Positions 1 through 10,901 of a DNA stretch of 10,901 bases are shown here, piece after piece. The position numbers and the translations under genes are program-made. The stretch is from the UHGV virus genome UHGV-0071665. One strand, written 5' to 3'. Every line of letters starts with the position of its first letter. The stretch's first letter is position 1. This DNA comes from a virus. The notes beneath the pieces are model-generated. The model had not been told where the DNA came from. It made no database searches and worked only from the letters and a program-made list of their open reading frames with translations.

Positions 1-25
1 TTAGAGAACGTGCGAGGAAAACAAG

Positions 26-1560: not shown

Positions 1561-1751
1561 ACGCCACAATTCAAACGATACCAGAGCTTCTTATCCAGAC
1601 ACGAGGCAATCAGACCGAAGTGGCAAGGATGCTTTCCTGCGCAAGAGGAACAGTGCTTAAGTACAACCGAGACAGCAAAGGCGAGCGTCACGTAATAGTT
1701 AACGGCGTCCTGATGGTCAAACAGGGCAAGAGGGGAAGACGATGGGCATAA
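1557..1751 (+). CDS. ninH: NinH-like small DNA-binding protein
   Basis: 64 aa; TIPELLIQTRGNQTEVARMLSCARGTVLKY...VIVNGVLMV matches lambda NinH as I recall it. Overlaps rusA stop and Q start. Confidence 0.75.
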   Translation: MNATIQTIPELLIQTRGNQTEVARMLSCARGTVLKYNRDSKGERHVIVNGVLMVKQGKRGRRWA

Positions 1752-2230
1752 GAGAACTAAACCTCACCAAAGAGCAGCACGAGTGGCTGAATGGCTGGCT
1801 TGAACTGTGGGGGGCATGGGTTTATTCAGGTCGTCTTGAAAAGCGCATGAGCAGCGTAATAGCGAAGTTCATGGAGAGCGTAGAGCCGGGAAGAGTTATG
1901 ACAAGGCCAATGTGCAATGATGATGATGGAATGTTGATTTCTCAGGTCGTCGATTCCGTCATGTACATTGACAAGAAAGCCTTTGGCATCCTCCTCAGCT
2001 ACTACGCCCATGGATCTTCCAAGCACGCCATTGCATCTTACTATCATCGCGTCGCAAGACCTCGCAAGATGTTATGCCGGGGCGGAGGGCGCATTCAAAA
2101 ACCATCGCTCGCAACCTGTCGTCGGGAAGTTGACGAAATCCTCAATGCCTCGTTGTTTATGATTTACCCGGTTCTGGATAGTGCGTTTAAAAACCGGAAA
2201 CGTGTAGAGAAAATTAAACATGTAGCATAG
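1742..2230 (+). CDS. Late-gene antiterminator, Q family (not lambda-Q type)
   Basis: 162 aa ORF immediately after ninH and before a promoter-like sequence and hairpin terminator, the position Q occupies in lambdoid phages. Cys/His-containing C-terminal half. Family assignment rests on position and general resemblance. Confidence 0.6.
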   Translation: MGIRELNLTKEQHEWLNGWLELWGAWVYSGRLEKRMSSVIAKFMESVEPGRVMTRPMCNDDDGMLISQVVDSVMYIDKKAFGILLSYYAHGSSKHAIASYYHRVARPRKMLCRGGGRIQKPSLATCRREVDEILNASLFMIYPVLDSAFKNRKRVEKIKHVA

Positions 2231-2431: not shown

Positions 2432-2857
2432 ATGCCGAGCAAAGATTACTATCTTAATCGAAGGGCTAGGCTTGCTAAGACCGTGGAAAAGTTGGGTGGT
2501 CGTTGCGCGAGTTGCGGATCCGAATATTCGCTTCAGTTTGACCACATAGACCCTTCCACCAAATCAGCAAATGTAAGCGAGATGCACTATCACTCAGATT
2601 AGGTGTTTTATGCTGAGGTTGAAAAGTGCCAACTACTATGTTCTGCATGCCACATTCAGAAAACCAAATTTGACCTTAGCTACTTAGTAGCTGGTGAGCT
2701 GAATGGTATGAGCAAGCTAACAATGGACAGCGTCCAGTTCATCAGAGAAAACTACATTCCACGACATAAGGTTTATGGAGCCAGAGGGCTAGGGAGAATG
2801 TTTGGTGTAACACATCAAACAGTGCTTTCAGCCTTAAATGGCGAAAGCTGGAAATAA
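2432..2857 (+). pseudogene. HNH endonuclease ORF interrupted by an in-frame amber codon (TAG 2600-2602)
   Basis: Hand translation from ATG 2432: MPSKDYYLNRRARLAKTVEKLGGRCASCGSEYSLQFDHIDPSTKSANVSEMHYHSD, then TAG, then the same frame continues as the track ORF 2603..2857 (VFYAEVEKCQLLCSACHIQKT...). Together the halves carry the HNH signature (CxxC, DH, then LLCxxCH). GAGG at 2422-2425 precedes the ATG. Confidence 0.6.
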
Positions 2858-3274: not shown

Positions 3275-3301
3275 GCCTGTTCGTCCGAGCAGGCTTTTTT
3301 T
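3275..3301 (+). terminator. Rho-independent terminator
   Basis: 8-bp GC-rich stem (gcctgttc / gagcaggc, one G-U pair) with a 4-nt loop, followed by seven T (3295-3301). Confidence 0.7.
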
Positions 3302-3711
3302 GCCCGCATTATCTTCATTGAAAACTGGCAACTCAGAGAATCATCCAAATTAAAAAAGCAGCAACGAGAGCGATTACTAATACATTCTTCGCTTTTTCTC
3401 TTCTGCTGGCCTTCACAAAAGGATTCACTATCCGGCAGTGGCTACACACAAGTGATTCTGGGTTAATTAACTTTCCGCAGTAGGGGCAGGGCTTGATAAT
3501 CATTGGTACTAATTAAGTTGTGAGAACGTAGTCTCATTTAACCACATTTATCGAGTTGTTTTACTAATGGTCTAGTTATTTCAGACATATTCATCAATTT
3601 CAGGCTCACGGGAATCATCCGCTACGTGCTTTGTTGATAAATCCAGCCCGTGAAGCCTGACCCTTTTCAAACACACACACAGCACCATCCGGAAAATCGG
3701 AGGTGAGGCCT

Positions 3712-4035
3712 ATGAAAATGCCATACAAACAAGATTTCATCGCTGCGCTACTTGCCGCCAAGGAGCAGGGTATTGGTGCAATGCTGGCTTTTATCATGGC
3801 GTATCTGCGTGGTCGCTATAACGGCGGCGCGGTAACAAAAACGCTAATTGATGCGCTGATGTGCGCGATGATTGCCTGGTTCGTTCGTGACCTTCTGGAC
3901 TTTATCGGCCTGAGCAGCAACCTCGCCTACATAGCCAGCGTCTTTATTGGATACATCGGCACCGATTCGATCGGCAATCTTATTAAAAAACTTGCAGCAA
4001 AAAAGGCGGGAGTTGACGATGCAAACCAGTCCTGA
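3712..4035 (+). CDS. S: Class I holin, lambda S-like, with dual-start motif
   Basis: Near-collinear with lambda S as I recall it (MKMP...[11 protein letters not shown]...[11 protein letters not shown]...SNLAYI...GYIGTDSIG). Met-Lys-Met start at 3712/3718, GGAGG at 3699-3703. The track's GTG at 3703 is an in-frame alternative. Confidence 0.85.
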
Positions 4036-4468
4036 CGGAATTGCTCTGATAAAAAAATTTGAAGGTTGTCGGCTGACTGCTTACCCCGACCCCGGAACGG
4101 GAGATGCGCCGTGGACCATCGGCTATGGCTGGACCCATCCGGTTGACGGAAAGCCAGTAAAGCGCGGTATGACTATCGACCAGCAAACCGCTGACAGGCT
4201 TCTGAAAACAGGGCTTGTTGGTTATGAGAATGACGTGCTGAAAGTTGTCAGGGTGAAGCTGACACAAGGCCAGTTCGACGCACTGGTGTCGTTCGCTTAC
4301 AACGTTGGGTCGCGTGCTCTTTCCACATCTACACTGCTGAAAAAGCTGAATGCTGGCGATATAAAAGGCGCGGCAGATGAATTTCTGCGCTGGAATAAAT
4401 CAGGCGGAAAGGTGATGCCGGGGCTCACGAATCGCCGCAAGGCAGAGCGAGCTCTGTTCCTGTCATGA
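4019..4468 (+). CDS. Endolysin, GH24 (T4/P22 gp19-type lysozyme)
   Basis: FEG...YPDPG...WTIGYGWT catalytic region and a C-terminus ([14 protein letters not shown]) matching P22-type lysozymes. Start placed at ATG 4019, with an SD and overlapping the holin 3' end, rather than the track's 3947, which lies inside the holin. Confidence 0.85.
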
Positions 4469-4932
4469 TTAGCGCACTGGTTAAGCGTTACTGGCTGCAG
4501 TTGCTGGTGCTGGCGTTAATCGGCGCACTGGCTTTCTTCGTGAACCACTACCGCGACAACGCCATCACTTACAGAGACCAGCGCGATAAGGCCACTGAGA
4601 AACTCCTCCTGGCGACCGCCACCATTAAAGACATGCAGACCCGCCAGCGTGATGTCGCTGCACTGGATGCCAAATACACCGGAGAACTGGCTGATGCGAA
4701 AGAAACCATTGAGCGTCTGCATAGCGATGTCATTGCTGGCCGTAAGCGCCTGCAAGTCGCCGCCACCTGTGCAAAGTCAACGACCGGAGCCAGCAGCATG
4801 GGCGATGGAGAAAGCCCAAGACTTACAGCAGATGCTGAACTCAATTATTACCGTCTACGAAGTGGAATCGACAAGATAACCGCGCAGGTTAACTACCTGC
4901 AGGAATACATCAGGACGCAATGCCTGAAATAA
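4465..4932 (+). CDS. Rz: Rz-type inner-membrane spanin
   Basis: 155 aa with an N-terminal transmembrane anchor ([18 protein letters not shown]) and a charged, coiled-coil-like periplasmic domain. ATGA overlap with the endolysin stop. Confidence 0.8.
4694..4879 (+). CDS. Rz1: Rz1-type outer-membrane lipoprotein spanin, embedded in the +1 frame of Rz
   Basis: Within track ORF 4649..4879: [20 protein letters not shown] is a lipoprotein signal with lipobox, followed by a proline-rich mature part ([14 protein letters not shown]). GGAG sits 8 nt upstream of ATG 4694. Confidence 0.7.
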
Positions 4933-5133: not shown

Positions 5134-5631
5134 ATGAAATCATTAACCCTCTTCAATCAACCAATTCGTATCGGTGAAGATGGCATGATCTGCCTCACTG
5201 ATATGTGGAAAGCTAGTGGTAAAAGTGAATCTGAATCGCCTTACCACTACCTGCGAAACAAGCAGACCAAAGAGTTCTTAGCCGAGCTGGAGAAAAACCA
5301 CGAATCTGTGGTTTTTACTGAGCGCGGTGTACACGGTGGAACATATGGCGGGAAGTTTGTTGCTTACGATTATGCGGCTTGGTTAAACCCCGGGTTCAAG
5401 TACGCGGCCTATAAAGTCCTCGATGACTACTTCACCGGAGAACTTCAGCATCGCAACAGCTTAAGTGCGCAGCTCAACATGAAATGTCATGAGTTTGACC
5501 AGAAGAAAGACATGGCGAGCTTCTGCGGACAAGGGCTGGCAGCATGGCGCTATACGAAGCCAGTGTTGGTCGCTGAGATTAACTCCCTGGCTAACCAGCT
5601 GCAGATTACGATCCCCGGGCTTCCGGGATGA
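5134..5631 (+). CDS. KilA-N domain protein
   Basis: 165 aa; the N-terminal pattern IRIGEDGMICLTDMWKASGK...EFLAEL...GG.YGGKFV..D.A.W..P matches the KilA-N fold signature as I recall it. Confidence 0.65.
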   Translation: MKSLTLFNQPIRIGEDGMICLTDMWKASGKSESESPYHYLRNKQTKEFLAELEKNHESVVFTERGVHGGTYGGKFVAYDYAAWLNPGFKYAAYKVLDDYFTGELQHRNSLSAQLNMKCHEFDQKKDMASFCGQGLAAWRYTKPVLVAEINSLANQLQITIPGLPG

Positions 5632-5885
5632 GTGATCGTGTCATTGAATGCGCCTCCAGAGCGGGGCGCGACTTCTCAGAGTTCATGAAAGGCGAGAAGG
5701 GCATGAGGGAAGCATTGGCCTCGGTGGATGAGTTTGGCGAGCAGCTGCGCCTCAACGGCTGTGTCAATCATCACTTTGTTAGCTACATGATGCGGAACTC
5801 GATCATGCAGGCATTCATGGACATGGCAAAAGCCGAGAGGAAAGAAGAGCGCCGGCGTAAGCGAGCGGAAGCAAAAGCGAAGTAG
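5628..5885 (+). CDS. Hypothetical small protein with a basic C-terminal tail
   Basis: 85 aa ORF, ATGA-coupled to the KilA-N gene; C-terminus KAERKEERRRKRAEAKAK. No family recognised. Confidence 0.45.
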   Translation: MSDRVIECASRAGRDFSEFMKGEKGMREALASVDEFGEQLRLNGCVNHHFVSYMMRNSIMQAFMDMAKAERKEERRRKRAEAKAK

Positions 5886-6237
5886 CCATTACAAAGCCCA
5901 TCTACGGGTGGGCTTGATAATGAAACCGTGATTTACATCCCCACAATCCGGGTATGTAAAAGATAGTTCAGGCGAGAACAGATTTAACTAAATCTGTGCA
6001 CCACCAGTTACGGCAGTACCACGAAGCAACCCAAGCCAGTAAGTGGGGAAATAACACTGGCAGCCACTGAAAGATGAACCTCCAGCCTTATGGCAAAAAA
6101 GATTCTTTGTGGTGGCGGGCTGATGGAAAGACATCGGTTATTGCAGAGGCCATTCAATGAGTGGTCTCGACAATGGCTTATACCCTGCACGGGATAACTT
6201 AACTGATATCCCTTTTAACGGATAAACGGAGCCAACA

Positions 6238-6393
6238 ATGGCAAAGCTCACCGACAAACAAGAGCTGTTTGCCCGTGAGTACCTGAAAGATTTAAACGCC
6301 ACACAGGCAGCTATCAGGGCGGGTTGGGCAAAAGCTCAACAACATGCCGTATTACCGCGCGAAACAATACGCGCAGATGCTTGGCATCGATGA
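6238..6393 (+). pseudogene. Terminase small-subunit N-terminal stub (51 codons)
   Basis: ORF below the track's size cut-off, translated by hand: MAKLTDKQELFAREYLKDLNATQAAIRAG, then unrelated sequence (WAKAQQHAVLPRETIRADAWHR) and a stop. The first part matches the conserved N-terminus of small terminase subunits as I recall it. Good SD (GGAG, 8 nt spacing). Its 3' end overlaps the next ORF by 50 nt. Confidence 0.55.
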
Positions 6394-7981
6394 AAACACG
6401 CTGATGGCGATGCGGCGCGGCATGAATGGCTTTACCGCCGATTACCAGTCGATGCTGCAAAAGACAGGGTTCAACGCTGATAAAGCGGCTGTTCAGTCCA
6501 ACAAATTCATGACGTCCATGCGCGGGCTTACGTCGCTGTTCGGCATCATGCGGGACAAGATCGGCTCAAACCTCGCTGGTGGCCTGGCTGGTTCGCTGGA
6601 CAGCCTGCGGCGGCGCATCCTCGACAATTTCCCGAAGATTGAAGAGACGCTGACCAGAGTTATTAAAGGCGTGATCTGGCTTGCGAACGCATTCACGAGA
6701 ATGGCGTGGCGGCTGATACAGGGCGCTGGCTCTGTCATCGACTGGTGGAAGCGTCTTGACGATGGCAGTAAAAATCTGCTGAAAATATTCGGTGCTCTAC
6801 TGGTCGCATGGCGTCTGCTTAATTCTGCGTTCCTGAAATCCCCGATTGGAATTATCACCACACTGATTCTGGCGATCGGATTGCTGTACGACGATTACCA
6901 GACGTGGAAAGAGGGCGGTAAAAGCCTGATTGACTGGTCCAAATGGCAGCCAGAAATTGAGCAGGCAAAGAAGGTGTTCAAGTGGCTGCGCGATAAGTTT
7001 CTGGAGCTCAAGGACAACCTCGGCGGCTGGAAAAATACGCTCACCATCCTGTTTGGCTTTCTGGCTGGTGCGAAGCTGGTCTCCATGCTCACTGGCATCG
7101 GGCGACTTGTCGCCGGATTTATGGGGCTTGGTAAGGCAATTGGCGGCTCTATTGGTGGGCTGGGTAAGCTGGCGCAGGGGATCGCACAGCTGGCAATCAA
7201 GAATCCATGGTTGCTTATGTTCATTCCTGCCAACAATACGCCGACCACCAGTGAAGAAATGGCGTCGATTGGCGGTATAGGCAGCAATATCGTACCTGAA
7301 AGGCAGCAGGCATATGAGGCGCTGAGAAAGGAAAATCCCGGCAAAGACTTTTTCACTGATGAGCAAATCCAGCGAAAAATTCAGGAGATGGGACTGGAGC
7401 CGGAGCAGCGAGCGCAGTCGGTTAAGCGACCTCAGGCGACGGCCCAGGGCAAGGTATTGCTCGACTGGATGGGGCCAATGTTCAATAAACTGGAGTCGCT
7501 TTATCAGCTGCCAGCTGGCCTGTTGAAAAGCGTGGCGATCACCGAGTCGGGTGGTAACCAGTTCGCCATATCCGGCGCAGGCGCGAAAGGACTGTTTCAG
7601 TTTATGGATGGCACGGCGCGCGACATGGGCCTGCGTGGGAATGATGTATTCGACCCGGAAAAGTCAGCTCAGGCAGCCGCTAAGTACCTCAGCCAGCTGT
7701 TGCGGCAGAACGGCGGAGACCTTAGCAAAGCACTGGCATCATATAACTGGGGGATCGGGAATGTTAAGCGTTATGGAATGGGGCTAATGCCGCAGGAAAC
7801 GCGCAACTACATTCCGAAAGTGATGAGCAATATGCCCACCAGCGCCCCGGTGATTCAGCAGGAAACGAACATTAACATCCACGGCGTTTCCGATCCGCGC
7901 GAGGCTGCCCGTTTGACTGTTGACCGTCAAAAGGGCGTGAATTCACAGTTAACCCAGCAACTCCCCGCAGGACCGAGATAA
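6344..7981 (+). CDS. Tape-measure protein, C-terminal portion, with lytic transglycosylase (SLT) domain; probably 5'-truncated
   Basis: 545 aa with Gly-rich hydrophobic stretches (GIGRLVAGFMGLGKAIGGSIGGLGKLAQGIA) and an SLT-type motif (ITESGGNQFAISGAGAKGLFQFM...AAKYL...ASYNWGIG). First in-frame ATG has no convincing RBS, and the frame is open upstream only to 6296. Confidence 0.7.
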   Translation: MPYYRAKQYAQMLGIDENTLMAMRRGMNGFTADYQSMLQKTGFNADKAAVQSNKFMTSMRGLTSLFGIMRDKIGSNLAGGLAGSLDSLRRRILDNFPKIEETLTRVIKGVIWLANAFTRMAWRLIQGAGSVIDWWKRLDDGSKNLLKIFGALLVAWRLLNSAFLKSPIGIITTLILAIGLLYDDYQTWKEGGKSLIDWSKWQPEIEQAKKVFKWLRDKFLELKDNLGGWKNTLTILFGFLAGAKLVSMLTGIGRLVAGFMGLGKAIGGSIGGLGKLAQGIAQLAIKNPWLLMFIPANNTPTTSEEMASIGGIGSNIVPERQQAYEALRKENPGKDFFTDEQIQRKIQEMGLEPEQRAQSVKRPQATAQGKVLLDWMGPMFNKLESLYQLPAGLLKSVAITESGGNQFAISGAGAKGLFQFMDGTARDMGLRGNDVFDPEKSAQAAAKYLSQLLRQNGGDLSKALASYNWGIGNVKRYGMGLMPQETRNYIPKVMSNMPTSAPVIQQETNINIHGVSDPREAARLTVDRQKGVNSQLTQQLPAGPR

Positions 7982-8583
7982 TGGATATTTTATCAGCGAT
8001 TTTTCGCCAGCAATCCCGGCGAATTGGCCTGCTGATCCCCAGCGTGGTCGTTTCCGAAAAGCATTCTGATGCGCTCGAAATTACTGAGCACCCGGTGGAG
8101 AAGCCAACAACGAATAGCGCGTCGGGTTTCATCGCCGATCATGCGTATAAGCGCCCCAGCGAAGTCACGATGGAATGCGGCTTCGCAGGTGGCGGTTCGT
8201 TGCTGGACTTCATTGATACATCGTCAATCGGCCTCAGCGCCGGACTTAGCCCGAAAGAGACCTATCAGCAACTACTGGATCTCCAGTCCTCTCGGGTGCC
8301 GTTCGATGTAGTGACCGGAAAGCGGGTTTACAGCAATATGCTGGTGCGAGCCATCGAGGTGACAACGGATAAAACCAGCGAGAACGTGCTGAACTGCACG
8401 CTTACCCTGCGTGAAGTGATCATGTCGCAGACGCAGAGCGTTAGCGTTGCAGATAAATCAGATATGCAGGATGGCGTCAGCACATCGGCGGTGCAGAATT
8501 CCGGGATGAAATCCACTACACCGCCAAACGAATCCTTGCTGAGCCAGCTGGGCGGAAGCGTTACATCAGCATTCGGGGGATGA
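7981..8583 (+). CDS. Putative tail-tip or baseplate protein (family not recognised)
   Basis: 200 aa ORF; start overlaps the tape-measure stop (ATAATG). Assigned by position only. Confidence 0.45.
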   Translation: MDILSAIFRQQSRRIGLLIPSVVVSEKHSDALEITEHPVEKPTTNSASGFIADHAYKRPSEVTMECGFAGGGSLLDFIDTSSIGLSAGLSPKETYQQLLDLQSSRVPFDVVTGKRVYSNMLVRAIEVTTDKTSENVLNCTLTLREVIMSQTQSVSVADKSDMQDGVSTSAVQNSGMKSTTPPNESLLSQLGGSVTSAFGG

Positions 8584-8584
8584 T

Positions 8585-8890
8585 ATGCAGTTTAACGAAA
8601 TACCGCTTTCTCCTGACAATCAGCAGTTCCGCGTTTTGCTGGGCAATACCACGTATACACTCAGGATCATCTGACGTGATGCGGCTGGCTGGATTATGGA
8701 CGTGATGGATAGCGGCGGTGCCGCGCTTCTCTCTGGCGTACCTCTACTGACCGGCGTAAACCTTTTACGACAATATCCACAGCTTGGCATTGATGGCGCG
8801 CTGGTGGTGGCGACCGATAAGGGCGCACCAGACGAGCCCACCAAAACCAACCTCGGCACATACAGCCACCTCATTTTCGTACAGGAGTAG
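8585..8890 (+). pseudogene. Small tail-associated ORF with an in-frame TGA (8672-8674)
   Basis: ATG 8585 is 2 nt after the upstream stop with a GGGGGA SD. The frame reads MQFNEIPLSPDNQQFRVLLGNTTYTLRII, then TGA, then continues in the same frame (RDAAGWIMDV...) to TAG 8890, 3 nt before the next gene. The track shows only the distal part (8696..8890). Confidence 0.45.
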
Positions 8891-8892
8891 AA

Positions 8893-9960
8893 ATGTCTCT
8901 TAACTGGATGCGCCATTTTGAGCTGCAACTGTTGGACCAGAACGGGCAGGGCGTTTCCCTGTCTGACTTTAAGGTCACGTTCCAGATCGAGTGGGCAGAC
9001 ACACGCTGGCCACGCGTGGCGAACGTGAAAATTTACAACCTTTCGACCGATACCACGAACAAGATACTGGGGCAGGAGTTTGCAAAAATTCGCATCATTG
9101 CCGGGTATGACGGTATTGCGCCGGATGTTGATGCGAGCCAGGTTGGTGTCGCCCGGGAGATTTCACCAGACCAGGTAGGGCAGGTGAACGGTCAGAACTA
9201 CGGCCTGATATTTGACGGTGATATTCGCTTCACCGTCACCGGGAAGGACAACATCACCGATTCCTGGGTGCTGATTCAGGCCATCAGTAACCACGAAGCG
9301 TTCCTCTACGCGACTACCATCACCACGCTTGCCGCTGGTTATACCGTTGCGGACCTGCACCGGGCGACTATGCAGGATTTCAACGCGTTCGGCGTGACGC
9401 AGGGCATTACCGGTGACTTTCCTGATACCGTGTTTCCTCGTGGCCGTGCGATTTATTCATCCACCCGTAACGTGATGGATAATATTGCTGCGCAGTGCAA
9501 AGCGACATGGCAGCTGGTGGATGGTCAGGTCCAGATGGTGCCGGAGGATAAATATATTCACGAAGCCATTGTGTTGAATGCCGATACTGGCCTGATCGGT
9601 ATGCCGCAACAAACGATGGGCGGCGGAGTAAACGTGCGGTGCCTGATAAACCCAAACATCCGTATTAATGGTCTTATCCAGCTCGATCAGGCTTCGGTGT
9701 ACCGCGCCGCGCTCGGTAATAGCGAAATAGCACAGTCGCCCGGTCGCATCACCGAAACAGAAGAGAACGGCAACCGCGTACTGACCGGCACAACGTCACA
9801 GGCTGCCAGCATTGCGACAGATGGCGTTTATATCGTCAAAGCTATCGATTATACTGGTGACACCAGAGGTCAGGCGTGGTACATGGATTTGATGTGTTTT
9901 GCGCGTGGGGCTCGTGACCTGATTAGCCAGTCGACTATAGCTCGCTCAGGAGGAAATTAA
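8893..9960 (+). CDS. Putative tail-tip or baseplate hub protein (family not recognised)
   Basis: 355 aa ORF with a CAGGAG SD upstream, tightly packed after the small ORF. Assigned by position in the post-tape-measure block. Confidence 0.45.
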   Translation: MSLNWMRHFELQLLDQNGQGVSLSDFKVTFQIEWADTRWPRVANVKIYNLSTDTTNKILGQEFAKIRIIAGYDGIAPDVDASQVGVAREISPDQVGQVNGQNYGLIFDGDIRFTVTGKDNITDSWVLIQAISNHEAFLYATTITTLAAGYTVADLHRATMQDFNAFGVTQGITGDFPDTVFPRGRAIYSSTRNVMDNIAAQCKATWQLVDGQVQMVPEDKYIHEAIVLNADTGLIGMPQQTMGGGVNVRCLINPNIRINGLIQLDQASVYRAALGNSEIAQSPGRITETEENGNRVLTGTTSQAASIATDGVYIVKAIDYTGDTRGQAWYMDLMCFARGARDLISQSTIARSGGN

Positions 9961-10851
9961 GTGGGTACAAATAAGAACGGAATTCGATATAGCGCACTTT
10001 TTCTTTCCGGGTTGCTCTTATCCGGGGGCGCGAGTGCAGGCTTTAATTCCGCGCAGAACGCTGAGTACAAAAGACGTCCAGGATGGCAGCCGATAGTAAT
10101 TTTATCGACAGATGATTGTCAGACATGGAAATCTAAAGGGAAGTCACTAATTGACTGGAGTGGCGAGATCTGTGGTCCTGACGGGTTGATTAAGGCAATC
10201 AATAAAAAGCCGGAGAATATACCAGCTTTTTATGCTGCATATCATGAGTACGGCACAGGTGGAGTTAGGGCTATCGATGTAAGAGATAATTCTCAGCTAA
10301 ATTATCTCAATTTTGTAAATGATTTAGCTAAGAAACTTTCTTCTTCGGCTGTTGTATTAAAGATTTATGATGATTATATCATTGATAGAAAACCCATGGG
10401 GCTTGCAGAGGTTTCACGAGAAAATTTTGTAAAACAGCTAAATGAGTTATCGCTGAAGCAACCTGCCATCTATCAAAAAATGAACGACGTAGCCAAGGCT
10501 GATTACGAGAAAAGTAGTAATGTTCACAGTAACGAAAAGCTTGGCGTGAATTACAAAACAGTCTGTGGTCCTTATACGATTGATCTGTCTTCTGCTGATG
10601 GTTGGGCCAGAATTAATGGCGCAAAACCAGAGACGCAAAAAATTAGCCCAATCGGCTCTGGTGGTAGCACCAAAGGGGAACCGGATAACATCAAGATGGA
10701 GTGGATGGCTGCCACTAATCAACCCGGCCGCTGGGTTGGGCTTGAGTACATCAAGCGCAACGGAAAAGCTATTCTCAACGCACAGTGGTTGCAGGCCAGC
10801 ATAGACGCGCCGCGCCAGTATGCAACATACGACTGCCGAAAAGTAAAATAG
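9961..10851 (+). CDS. Secreted/periplasmic protein with Sec signal peptide; moron-like accessory gene
   Basis: GTG start with a strong AGGAGG SD 7 nt upstream. N-terminus MGTNKNGIRYSALFLSGLLLSGGASA|GF is a classic signal peptide with an AXA site and no lipobox Cys. Four Cys in the mature part. Central part about 33% GC (10261-10460) against about 51-57% at the ends. Followed by a hairpin. Confidence 0.6.
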   Translation: MGTNKNGIRYSALFLSGLLLSGGASAGFNSAQNAEYKRRPGWQPIVILSTDDCQTWKSKGKSLIDWSGEICGPDGLIKAINKKPENIPAFYAAYHEYGTGGVRAIDVRDNSQLNYLNFVNDLAKKLSSSAVVLKIYDDYIIDRKPMGLAEVSRENFVKQLNELSLKQPAIYQKMNDVAKADYEKSSNVHSNEKLGVNYKTVCGPYTIDLSSADGWARINGAKPETQKISPIGSGGSTKGEPDNIKMEWMAATNQPGRWVGLEYIKRNGKAILNAQWLQASIDAPRQYATYDCRKVK

Positions 10852-10868
10852 CCCGCCAGATAGGCGGG
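10850..10868. terminator. GC-rich hairpin after the last gene, possibly bidirectional
   Basis: gcccgcc / ggcgggc 7-bp stem with a 5-nt loop. No T tract on the + strand; on the - strand the hairpin is followed by a T-rich run (ctattttactttt). Confidence 0.4.
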
Positions 10869-10901
10869 CATGCGTCAAAAATATTGAGCTTTAATTATAA
10901 T

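Follow-up and report, generated by a model that had tools for sequence, protein, structure and literature searches.

The locus examined here raises the question of why a gene for a small terminase subunit should run directly into the end of a tail tape measure gene, and whether such a join is the scar of a deletion in a prophage, an assembly artefact, or an arrangement with a function. It lies in a stretch of 10,901 nucleotides labelled as virus genome UHGV-0071665, the whole of which is hereafter called the window. The original prediction, made from the sequence alone, regarded the join as a deletion junction in a cryptic prophage, and this was supported here by the mapped breakpoint, the intact relatives, the att sites and further lesions in the same element. 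We consider it highly probable that one illegitimate recombination event produced the join, by deletion of approximately 11.6 kb from a lambdoid prophage that was integrated at att-lambda and carried a SEN34-like module. The features at the join are as follows.

6238..6393, plus strand: stub of the small terminase subunit gene (terS), an ORF of 51 aa in which codons 1-29 (6238-6324) are native and codons 30-51 are out-of-frame tape measure DNA.
6323..6325: deletion breakpoint, the trinucleotide GTT, a 3-bp microhomology common to the terS and tape measure sides, located by three-way alignment and megablast.
6323..7981, plus strand: remnant of the tape measure protein (TMP) gene, consisting of codons 142-693 and the stop codon of a 693-aa TMP with an SLT domain; codons 1-141, the start codon and the ribosome-binding site are gone.

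The terS stub still has the native Shine-Dalgarno sequence (GGAG) in front of its ATG at 6238, and its 29 native codons are followed by 22 out-of-frame codons, which read ...WAKAQQHAVLPRETIRADAWHR up to the stop codon TGA at 6391-6393. The Pfam family Terminase_2 (PF03592) matched residues 4-34 of the product with positions 1-31 of the 141-position profile (E=3.8e-11), and PHROG 51 'terminase small subunit' also matched (E=2.5e-13). Together with the alignment, these matches bore out the description of a terminase-like frame that keeps a conserved N-terminus and then reads unrelated sequence to a stop at 6393. The break had been placed near ...AIRAG, and indeed the last native terS codon, G29, occupies 6322-6324, and homology ends at 6325. 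The flank up to 6325 showed 96.4-96.7% identity to the intact terS loci of SC407 (L002) and ET650 (L007). The solved DNA-binding domains of small terminases (4zc3 and 2cmp; chains of 63-68 residues) align with approximately residues 3-47 of an intact 196-aa relative. Compared with this range, the 29 native residues of the predicted product showed that less than the full N-terminal helix-turn-helix DNA-binding domain is left. The oligomerisation core and the C-terminal region are also missing, as the product has 51 aa compared with 183-196 aa in intact relatives. Judged from its predicted product, the stub is not a functional terS.

On the other side of the join, the GTT at 6323 corresponds to codon V142 of the 693-aa protein (...FTGVGQKLNNMPYY...). 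The TMP frame has an in-frame stop upstream at 6293 and its first in-frame ATG at 6344, giving a 545-aa ORF (6344-7981) that overlaps the stub by exactly the 50 nt claimed for it (6344-6393). This ORF covered positions 195-658 of the 673-position profile of PHROG 2276 'tail length tape measure protein', whereas the full-length 693-aa relative covered 19-658, and the C-terminal lytic transglycosylase (SLT) domain was complete (Pfam PF01464, E=2.1e-25, residues 379-479). These results confirmed the identification of the ORF as the distal part of a tape measure protein; the N-terminal region of the family profile is not covered, codons 1-141 being missing. The structure 9b45 in the PDB, 'gp41 Tape measure protein', matched the remnant over the stretch of the SLT domain. 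The surroundings of the remnant are those of a TMP gene on one side only, as the Dit-like, plug and hub genes are present downstream while the pair of chaperone genes expected upstream is replaced by terS DNA. Functional translation of the remnant was rejected, since no Shine-Dalgarno sequence precedes any of the in-frame starts (ATG at 6344, 6377, 6404 and 6410). Translation by coupling to the stop of the stub at 6393, from the ATG at 6404 or 6410, is conceivable but unsupported. The remnant as predicted is not a functional TMP. The closest relative of the right arm was locus L008 (GCA_000703985.1), which aligned with 6323-10901 at 98.95% identity and without gaps, and in which a complete 693-aa gene follows those for sheath, tube and chaperones.

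The breakpoint was determined by DNA comparison with intact loci, as had been proposed for this region. Megablast searches of 5426 complete E. coli genomes, with positions 5900-6900 and the whole window as queries, gave thousands of matches. Among the matches listed, all left pieces reaching the breakpoint ended at 6323-6325 in the context of 'terminase small subunit', and all right pieces started at 6323 in the context of 'transglycosylase SLT domain-containing protein'. A three-way alignment of the window with the intact terS of SC407 and the intact TMP gene of YZ22PE67 (L001) resolved the switch to the 3 bp. The window reads ...ATCAGGGCGGGTT followed by GGGCAAAAGC; the intact terS has the same ...ATCAGGGCGGGTT followed by ACAGCGAGAAG, and the intact TMP gene has ...TTTACTGGCGTT followed by the same GGGCAAAAGC. 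The homology on the terS side thus ends at 6325 and that on the TMP side starts at 6323. As only the GTT at 6323-6325 is common to both sides, we infer that the recombination was illegitimate, that is, independent of homology. An exact 41-nt junction probe (CAGCTATCAGGGCGGGTTGGGCAAAAGCTCAACAACATGCC), validated on the window and six loci, had an expectation of 0 in shuffles. This value, together with the identities of 96.5% (left) and 99% (right) between the junction flanks and the intact genes, indicated that the junction is not a product of chance.

Intact relatives with both sides of the junction contain approximately 11.6-11.8 kb between the breakpoints, a stretch of some 15 genes that begins with terL and ends with the tail chaperones. 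The distance between the equivalent breakpoints is 11,645 bp in ET650 (positions 25918 and 37561) and 11,807 bp in YZ22PE67. The ET650 prophage has, in order, the KilA-N gene, an 85-aa gene, terS (25831-26385), terL and the genes for a DUF1073 portal protein, a minor head protein and a DUF2213 protein, and continues with cement, DUF2184 capsid, connectors, DUF3383 sheath, DUF3277 tube, chaperone, TMP (37144-39149) and baseplate. Salmonella phage SEN34 (Brunovirus), an isolated temperate myovirus, has terS at 1-630 and 'tail tape measure protein' at 11538-13547 with the homologous breakpoint at 11955, and the break falls at nt 418-424 of the homologous TMP genes. SEN34 and the related E. coli prophages of ET650, YZ22PE67 and SC407 share with the element the structural module and its order (terS, SLT-domain TMP, Dit-like protein, plug, hub, baseplate J), but they are intact, with 11.6-11.8 kb present at the place of the scar. 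Neither the 5426 complete E. coli genomes nor a set of 50,697 phage records yielded a relative with the terminase-to-TMP order of the window, and a 120-nt junction probe likewise gave no spanning match in either collection. We also sought a single parent near-identical in both arms and found none; L008 was read for 10 kb upstream, a distance that stops short of terS.

The junction was nevertheless on record elsewhere. The exact 51-aa stub protein was found on 10 contigs, and the junction itself was recovered in contigs from four samples, ERZ28810828 (50 kb, 44x) and ERZ773116 (0.9 kb) from ENA and SRR30861120 (9.9 kb) and SRR31716339 (2 kb) from Logan. Three of them (ERZ28810828, SRR30861120 and SRR31716339) matched the window with 100% identity through the join, and the ERZ773116 contig showed 99.4% identity with all three mismatches located upstream of the junction. 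These data bear on the possibility that two prophage fragments were joined by the assembler. Prophage regions are rich in repeats, the overlap at the join is just 3 bp, and all known copies of the sequence come from short-read and metagenome assemblies; on the other hand, the identical junction came from four samples processed by different pipelines, including the 50-kb contig at 44x, and a k-mer assembler would not be misled by an overlap of 3 bp. Misassembly is therefore very unlikely, and we give a chimera of this kind almost no credence; the concern about an artefact was answered, as judged on assemblies, by the identity of the junction among independently assembled contigs of the four samples.

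The junction is very rare. The 41-nt probe gave 0 matches each in IMG/VR, JGI metagenome contigs and GTDB species representatives. As all copies are essentially identical, the event appears to be recent, with no sign of retention by selection. In one contig of low coverage (L006, 1.8x), this junction is preceded by a gene of the Rha type, which takes the place of the KilA-N and 85-aa genes; either the left arm recombined later or the contig is a chimera.

Gene calls and Pfam searches identified the window as the late region of a lambdoid prophage. In addition to the features at the join, it contains the following.

26-196: ninF (gene call).
189-911: roi/ant-like gene (gene call).
911-1201: ybcO (gene call).
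1198-1560: rusA (gene call).
1557-1751: ninH (gene call).
1742..2230, plus strand: antiterminator Q, 162 aa (PF06530; RefSeq homologue 'antiterminator Q family protein').
2237-2242: promoter-like TTGACA, just 3' of Q.
Approximately 2270-2320: hairpin and T-run, 3' of Q.
2321-2395: tRNA-Asn.
2432..2857, plus strand: pseudogene of an HNH endonuclease, interrupted by an in-frame TAG at 2600-2602.
3712-4035, plus strand: holin (Pfam Phage_holin_3_1), ORF intact.
4019-4468, plus strand: endolysin (Pfam Phage_lysozyme), ORF intact.
4465-4932, plus strand: Rz spanin (Pfam Phage_lysis), ORF intact.
Approximately 4694-4879: Rz1-like lipoprotein ORF embedded in Rz, its start inferred from the lipobox LAVSAC in the ORF 4649-4879.
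5134-5631, plus strand: KilA-N/ORF11CD3 gene (Pfam).
5628-5885, plus strand: 85-aa gene; no further intact gene precedes terS, and the KilA-N and 85-aa genes follow each other as they do in the intact ET650 prophage.
7981..8583, plus strand: Dit-like baseplate protein, 200 aa (Pfam PF21821, E=7.7e-31), intact and equally long in the relatives.
8585..8890, plus strand: baseplate plug (Pam3_gp18-like) pseudogene, W30 changed from TGG to TGA at 8672-8674.
8893..9960, plus strand: baseplate hub, 355 aa (PHROG 196 'baseplate hub', E=8.8e-85), equal in length to its relatives.
9961-10851: 296-aa ORF (gene call).

The exact 85-aa protein of the left flank was found only in the remnant lineage. The lysis cassette was retained with intact ORFs and Q is present, in line with the claim that a Q-driven lysis cassette had been kept. 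The TTGACA and the hairpin with T-run after Q are the putative pR' and tR'. A consensus promoter scan returned fewer sites than in shuffles. Genes for large terminase, portal, capsid, sheath, tube and chaperones were detected neither in the window nor between the attL and attR cores, and the stated absence of the head module (terL, portal, capsid, tube and chaperones) thus held for the whole element. The term 'tail-tip genes' needs refinement. The retained genes are those for the baseplate and tail fibres of a SEN34-like myovirus, so that the sheath has been lost as well as the tube.

The source element is approximately 18.7 kb long and located at the att-lambda site of E. coli, between ybhC and ybhB/bio. 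The 50-kb contig of ERZ28810828 runs from host genes through the element to host genes again, and the lambda att core GCTTTTTTATACTAA is present at position 1540 of L003 and position 16492 of L012. The left flank contains ybhC with 99.4% identity to E. coli, and the right flank contains ybhB-bioA-bioB-bioF-bioC. Inside the left boundary, only the C-terminal end of a lambda-type integrase (...REWDKIEIK and the stop codon) is left; the homology to the intact int stops at L003:2075, and a 193-aa gene follows. A DnaB-like helicase, aligned to residues 6-313 of a 458-aa homologue and cut at the Walker-B motif 'ILVD', lies directly against ninF where the window begins. A blastn comparison between the left end of L003 and lambdoid loci was unproductive, and proteins were compared there instead. 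Beyond the window, genes for a DUF4236 protein, spike, sheath initiator, baseplate J, wedge, tail fibre and fibre chaperone are followed by the lambda P-arm and the second att core (L012:16492).

The element contains at least three deletion junctions, namely truncated int/193-aa gene, truncated helicase/ninF and truncated terS/truncated TMP, and two nonsense mutations, in the plug gene (8672-8674) and the HNH gene (2600-2602). The former gene encodes 101 aa in intact relatives and was called as 61 aa here; in the latter, TCG was changed to TAG, whereas the homologue in E. coli KL53 has TCG and an intact frame of 141 aa. No repressor, cro, cII or immunity region was called in the element. Chromosomal integration bounded by att sites, the loss of genes needed for virions, replication or excision, and pseudogenes made by point mutations together support its classification as a cryptic lambdoid prophage.

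The boundaries of the element are also relevant to the possibility that the join arose by recombination between two partners, each the source of one arm, whether two prophages of the same cell or a resident prophage and an infecting phage. In the complete genomes, the left and right arms match best in different strains or prophages, L006 shows that the left arm can vary, and lambdoid phages readily exchange DNA with defective prophages (PMC3945230). A single attL/attR pair, however, bounds the element together with the fragment of the lambda-type int and the P arm, and intact prophages hold both arms in the same order approximately 11.6 kb apart. That the arms find their best matches in different genomes can be ascribed to lambdoid mosaicism. 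An internal deletion is more parsimonious and the outcome is equal either way, so we regard an origin from two prophages as improbable.

A further consideration was whether the arrangement had been selected, for example as a domesticated free SLT transglycosylase or as a baseplate/fibre complex combined with a lysis cassette. The downstream baseplate and fibre ORFs are intact with lengths equal to those in intact relatives, the SLT domain is complete, and the lysis modules of cryptic prophages can have host phenotypes (PMC7918800, PMC3105296). Against these points, the baseplate plug gene has a nonsense mutation, no Shine-Dalgarno sequence precedes any start of the TMP remnant, the join is out of frame, the junction is absent from the 5426 complete genomes, IMG/VR, the JGI metagenomes and the GTDB representatives, and the copies are all essentially identical. 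A selected functional configuration accordingly seems extremely unlikely. Hardly better are the prospects of a more specific version, in which the Q-controlled lysis genes, the SLT domain and approximately 10 baseplate and fibre ORFs would be kept as a muralytic or receptor-binding complex released by lysis, or as a host-range cassette to be captured by superinfecting SEN34-like phages; we rate it as only slightly less remote. A tailocin was ruled out, as there are no sheath or tube genes between attL and attR. The reading as a satellite or PICI was set aside; the int and helicase genes are incomplete, and only a stub of terS is left.

The preferred explanation, an internal deletion in one prophage, would have required a single step. 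The parent prophage would have carried a SEN34-like (Brunovirus-type) structural module for a contractile tail, and a crossover through the GTT between terS codon 29/30 and TMP codon 142 would have removed the rest of terS, terL and the genes for portal, head morphogenesis, scaffold, cement, major capsid, connector, tail terminator, sheath, tube and both tail-assembly chaperones, along with the first 141 codons of TMP. The join is out of frame, with terS reduced to a gene for a 51-aa peptide and the TMP remnant left with neither a start nor a ribosome-binding site of its own. The junction itself would be functionless, representing one step of ongoing prophage decay. From its gene content, the element is predicted to be unable to form particles or to package DNA. 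Given Q, the late promoter probably still transcribes the lysis cassette and the baseplate and fibre genes, and Q could also come from a superinfecting phage of matching Q specificity. Autonomous induction is doubtful because pR and the immunity region are gone. It has been shown experimentally that DLP12, Qin and Rac donate DNA to lambdoid phages by homologous recombination (PMC3945230), and by analogy the present remnant may likewise be able to donate DNA to incoming lambdoid phages by this route.

The relevance of these results is chiefly to annotation, and they open no new question. A sequence labelled as a virus in public data is in fact a non-viable prophage remnant of approximately 18.7 kb in the E. 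coli chromosome, and the public record of the 51-aa ORF, DAE77790.1, bears the title 'MAG TPA: Terminase small subunit [Caudoviricetes sp.]'. Pipelines that use terminase as a marker of phages or of their completeness would be misled by the stub.

Besides its SEN34-like relatives, the element resembles two known systems. Like the R-type tailocins, it is a phage-derived cluster that has no head genes and contains a lysis cassette with baseplate and tail-fibre genes. R-type tailocins, however, need sheath, tube, chaperones and a full TMP; the element has lost the first three and keeps only part of the last, and its plug gene is disrupted by the nonsense mutation. DLP12 of E. coli K-12, present in 74% of strains (PMC6379469), is the textbook parallel, from which the present scar departs only in details. 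DLP12 is also a lambdoid remnant, of approximately 20 kb, and has retained the nin region (ybcO, rusA), the Q homologue quuD and holin-lysozyme-Rz/Rz1, followed by remains of the packaging genes that overlap a distal tail gene, with the head and tail-shaft genes gone. Its order is ybcO, rusA, quuD, essD, rrrD, rzpD/rzoD, ..., nohD, aaaD and tfaD, in which aaaD is a 309-nt terL pseudogene overlapping the tail-fibre assembly gene tfaD, and pseudogenes are present in both elements. The two differ in the break, as DLP12 keeps the small terminase gene nohD whole and breaks in terL, whereas the present element breaks in terS codon 29/30. They also differ on the right side, which is a lambda-type side-tail-fibre assembly gene in DLP12 and a SEN34-like myovirus TMP with baseplate genes here. 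DLP12 is located at argU and has many IS elements, while the present element is located at att-lambda, is rare and appears young. The locus described here is an ordinary and well-known form of prophage decay, and adds one more cleanly mapped case in which decay mediated by microhomology leaves the lysis and tail-end genes behind, comparable to DLP12 of K-12.

The DnaB-like helicase gene immediately upstream of the window was truncated at the Walker-B motif, leaving 339 aa compared with approximately 458 aa, and the remnant adjoined ninF. This join is a further deletion junction, located at the same place as the start of the window. The following features of L003, the 50-kb contig carrying the whole element, lie to the left of the window.

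L003:1540-2100, lambda attL core and the neighbouring lambda-type integrase fragment, outside the window
L003:2748-3767, DnaB-like helicase remnant directly upstream of the window (junction at window 1-25)

The similarity of the integrase fragment to intact int genes ended at L003:2075, and no xis, recombination, immunity or O-type replication genes were detected in the element on L003.

Two genes inside the window were interrupted by in-frame stop codons.

2432-2857, HNH endonuclease gene between the antiterminator gene Q and the holin gene, with an in-frame TAG at 2600-2602
8585-8890, baseplate plug gene (Pam3_gp18-like), with a nonsense change of W30 from TGG to TGA (stop at 8672-8674)

The plug product consists of 101 aa in intact relatives. 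The HNH homologue of E. coli KL53 has TCG at the position of the TAG, forming an intact 141-aa gene within a surrounding stretch of 99.5% identity.

The junction of the small-terminase stub (terS) with the tape-measure remnant was also carried by L006, a contig from ERZ773116 with 1.8x coverage, in which a Rha-family regulator gene replaced the KilA-N and 85-aa genes upstream of the junction (region L006:1-415). Three mismatches to the window were grouped at window 6165-6171, the point of the homology switch. Either the left arm recombined once the deletion had formed, or L006 is a low-coverage chimera. The stub (6238-6393) and the truncated tape-measure protein are on deposit under 'MAG TPA: Caudoviricetes sp.' (DAE77790.1 and DAE77787.1), and a defective chromosomal remnant has therefore been listed as a virus genome.

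Two other ORFs were found in the window.

3333-3503, minus strand, 56-aa ORF flanked by a hairpin resembling a terminator (3275-3294) and by the holin gene
9961-10851, 296-aa ORF between the baseplate hub and DUF4236 genes, with a signal-peptide-like N-terminal segment

The 56-aa product has two CxxC motifs and a hydrophobic C-terminal segment. The 296-aa product had no Pfam match, and its PHROG match (3443, a family of unknown function) was confined to the C-terminal 100 residues. The 296-aa ORF was present in some of the intact relatives (L008-L013), while the E. coli prophages YZ22PE67 and ET650 had a shorter gene instead; it may be a moron.

The region immediately 3' of Q contained the following elements.

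2237-2395 region, TTGACA promoter-like site followed by a hairpin with a T-run
2321-2395, tRNA-Asn(GTT) downstream of the promoter-like site and hairpin

ET650 carries tRNA-Asn and tRNA-Thr at the same position, and the order of elements after Q is like that of a pR'/tR' unit of lambdoid phages that includes a phage tRNA.
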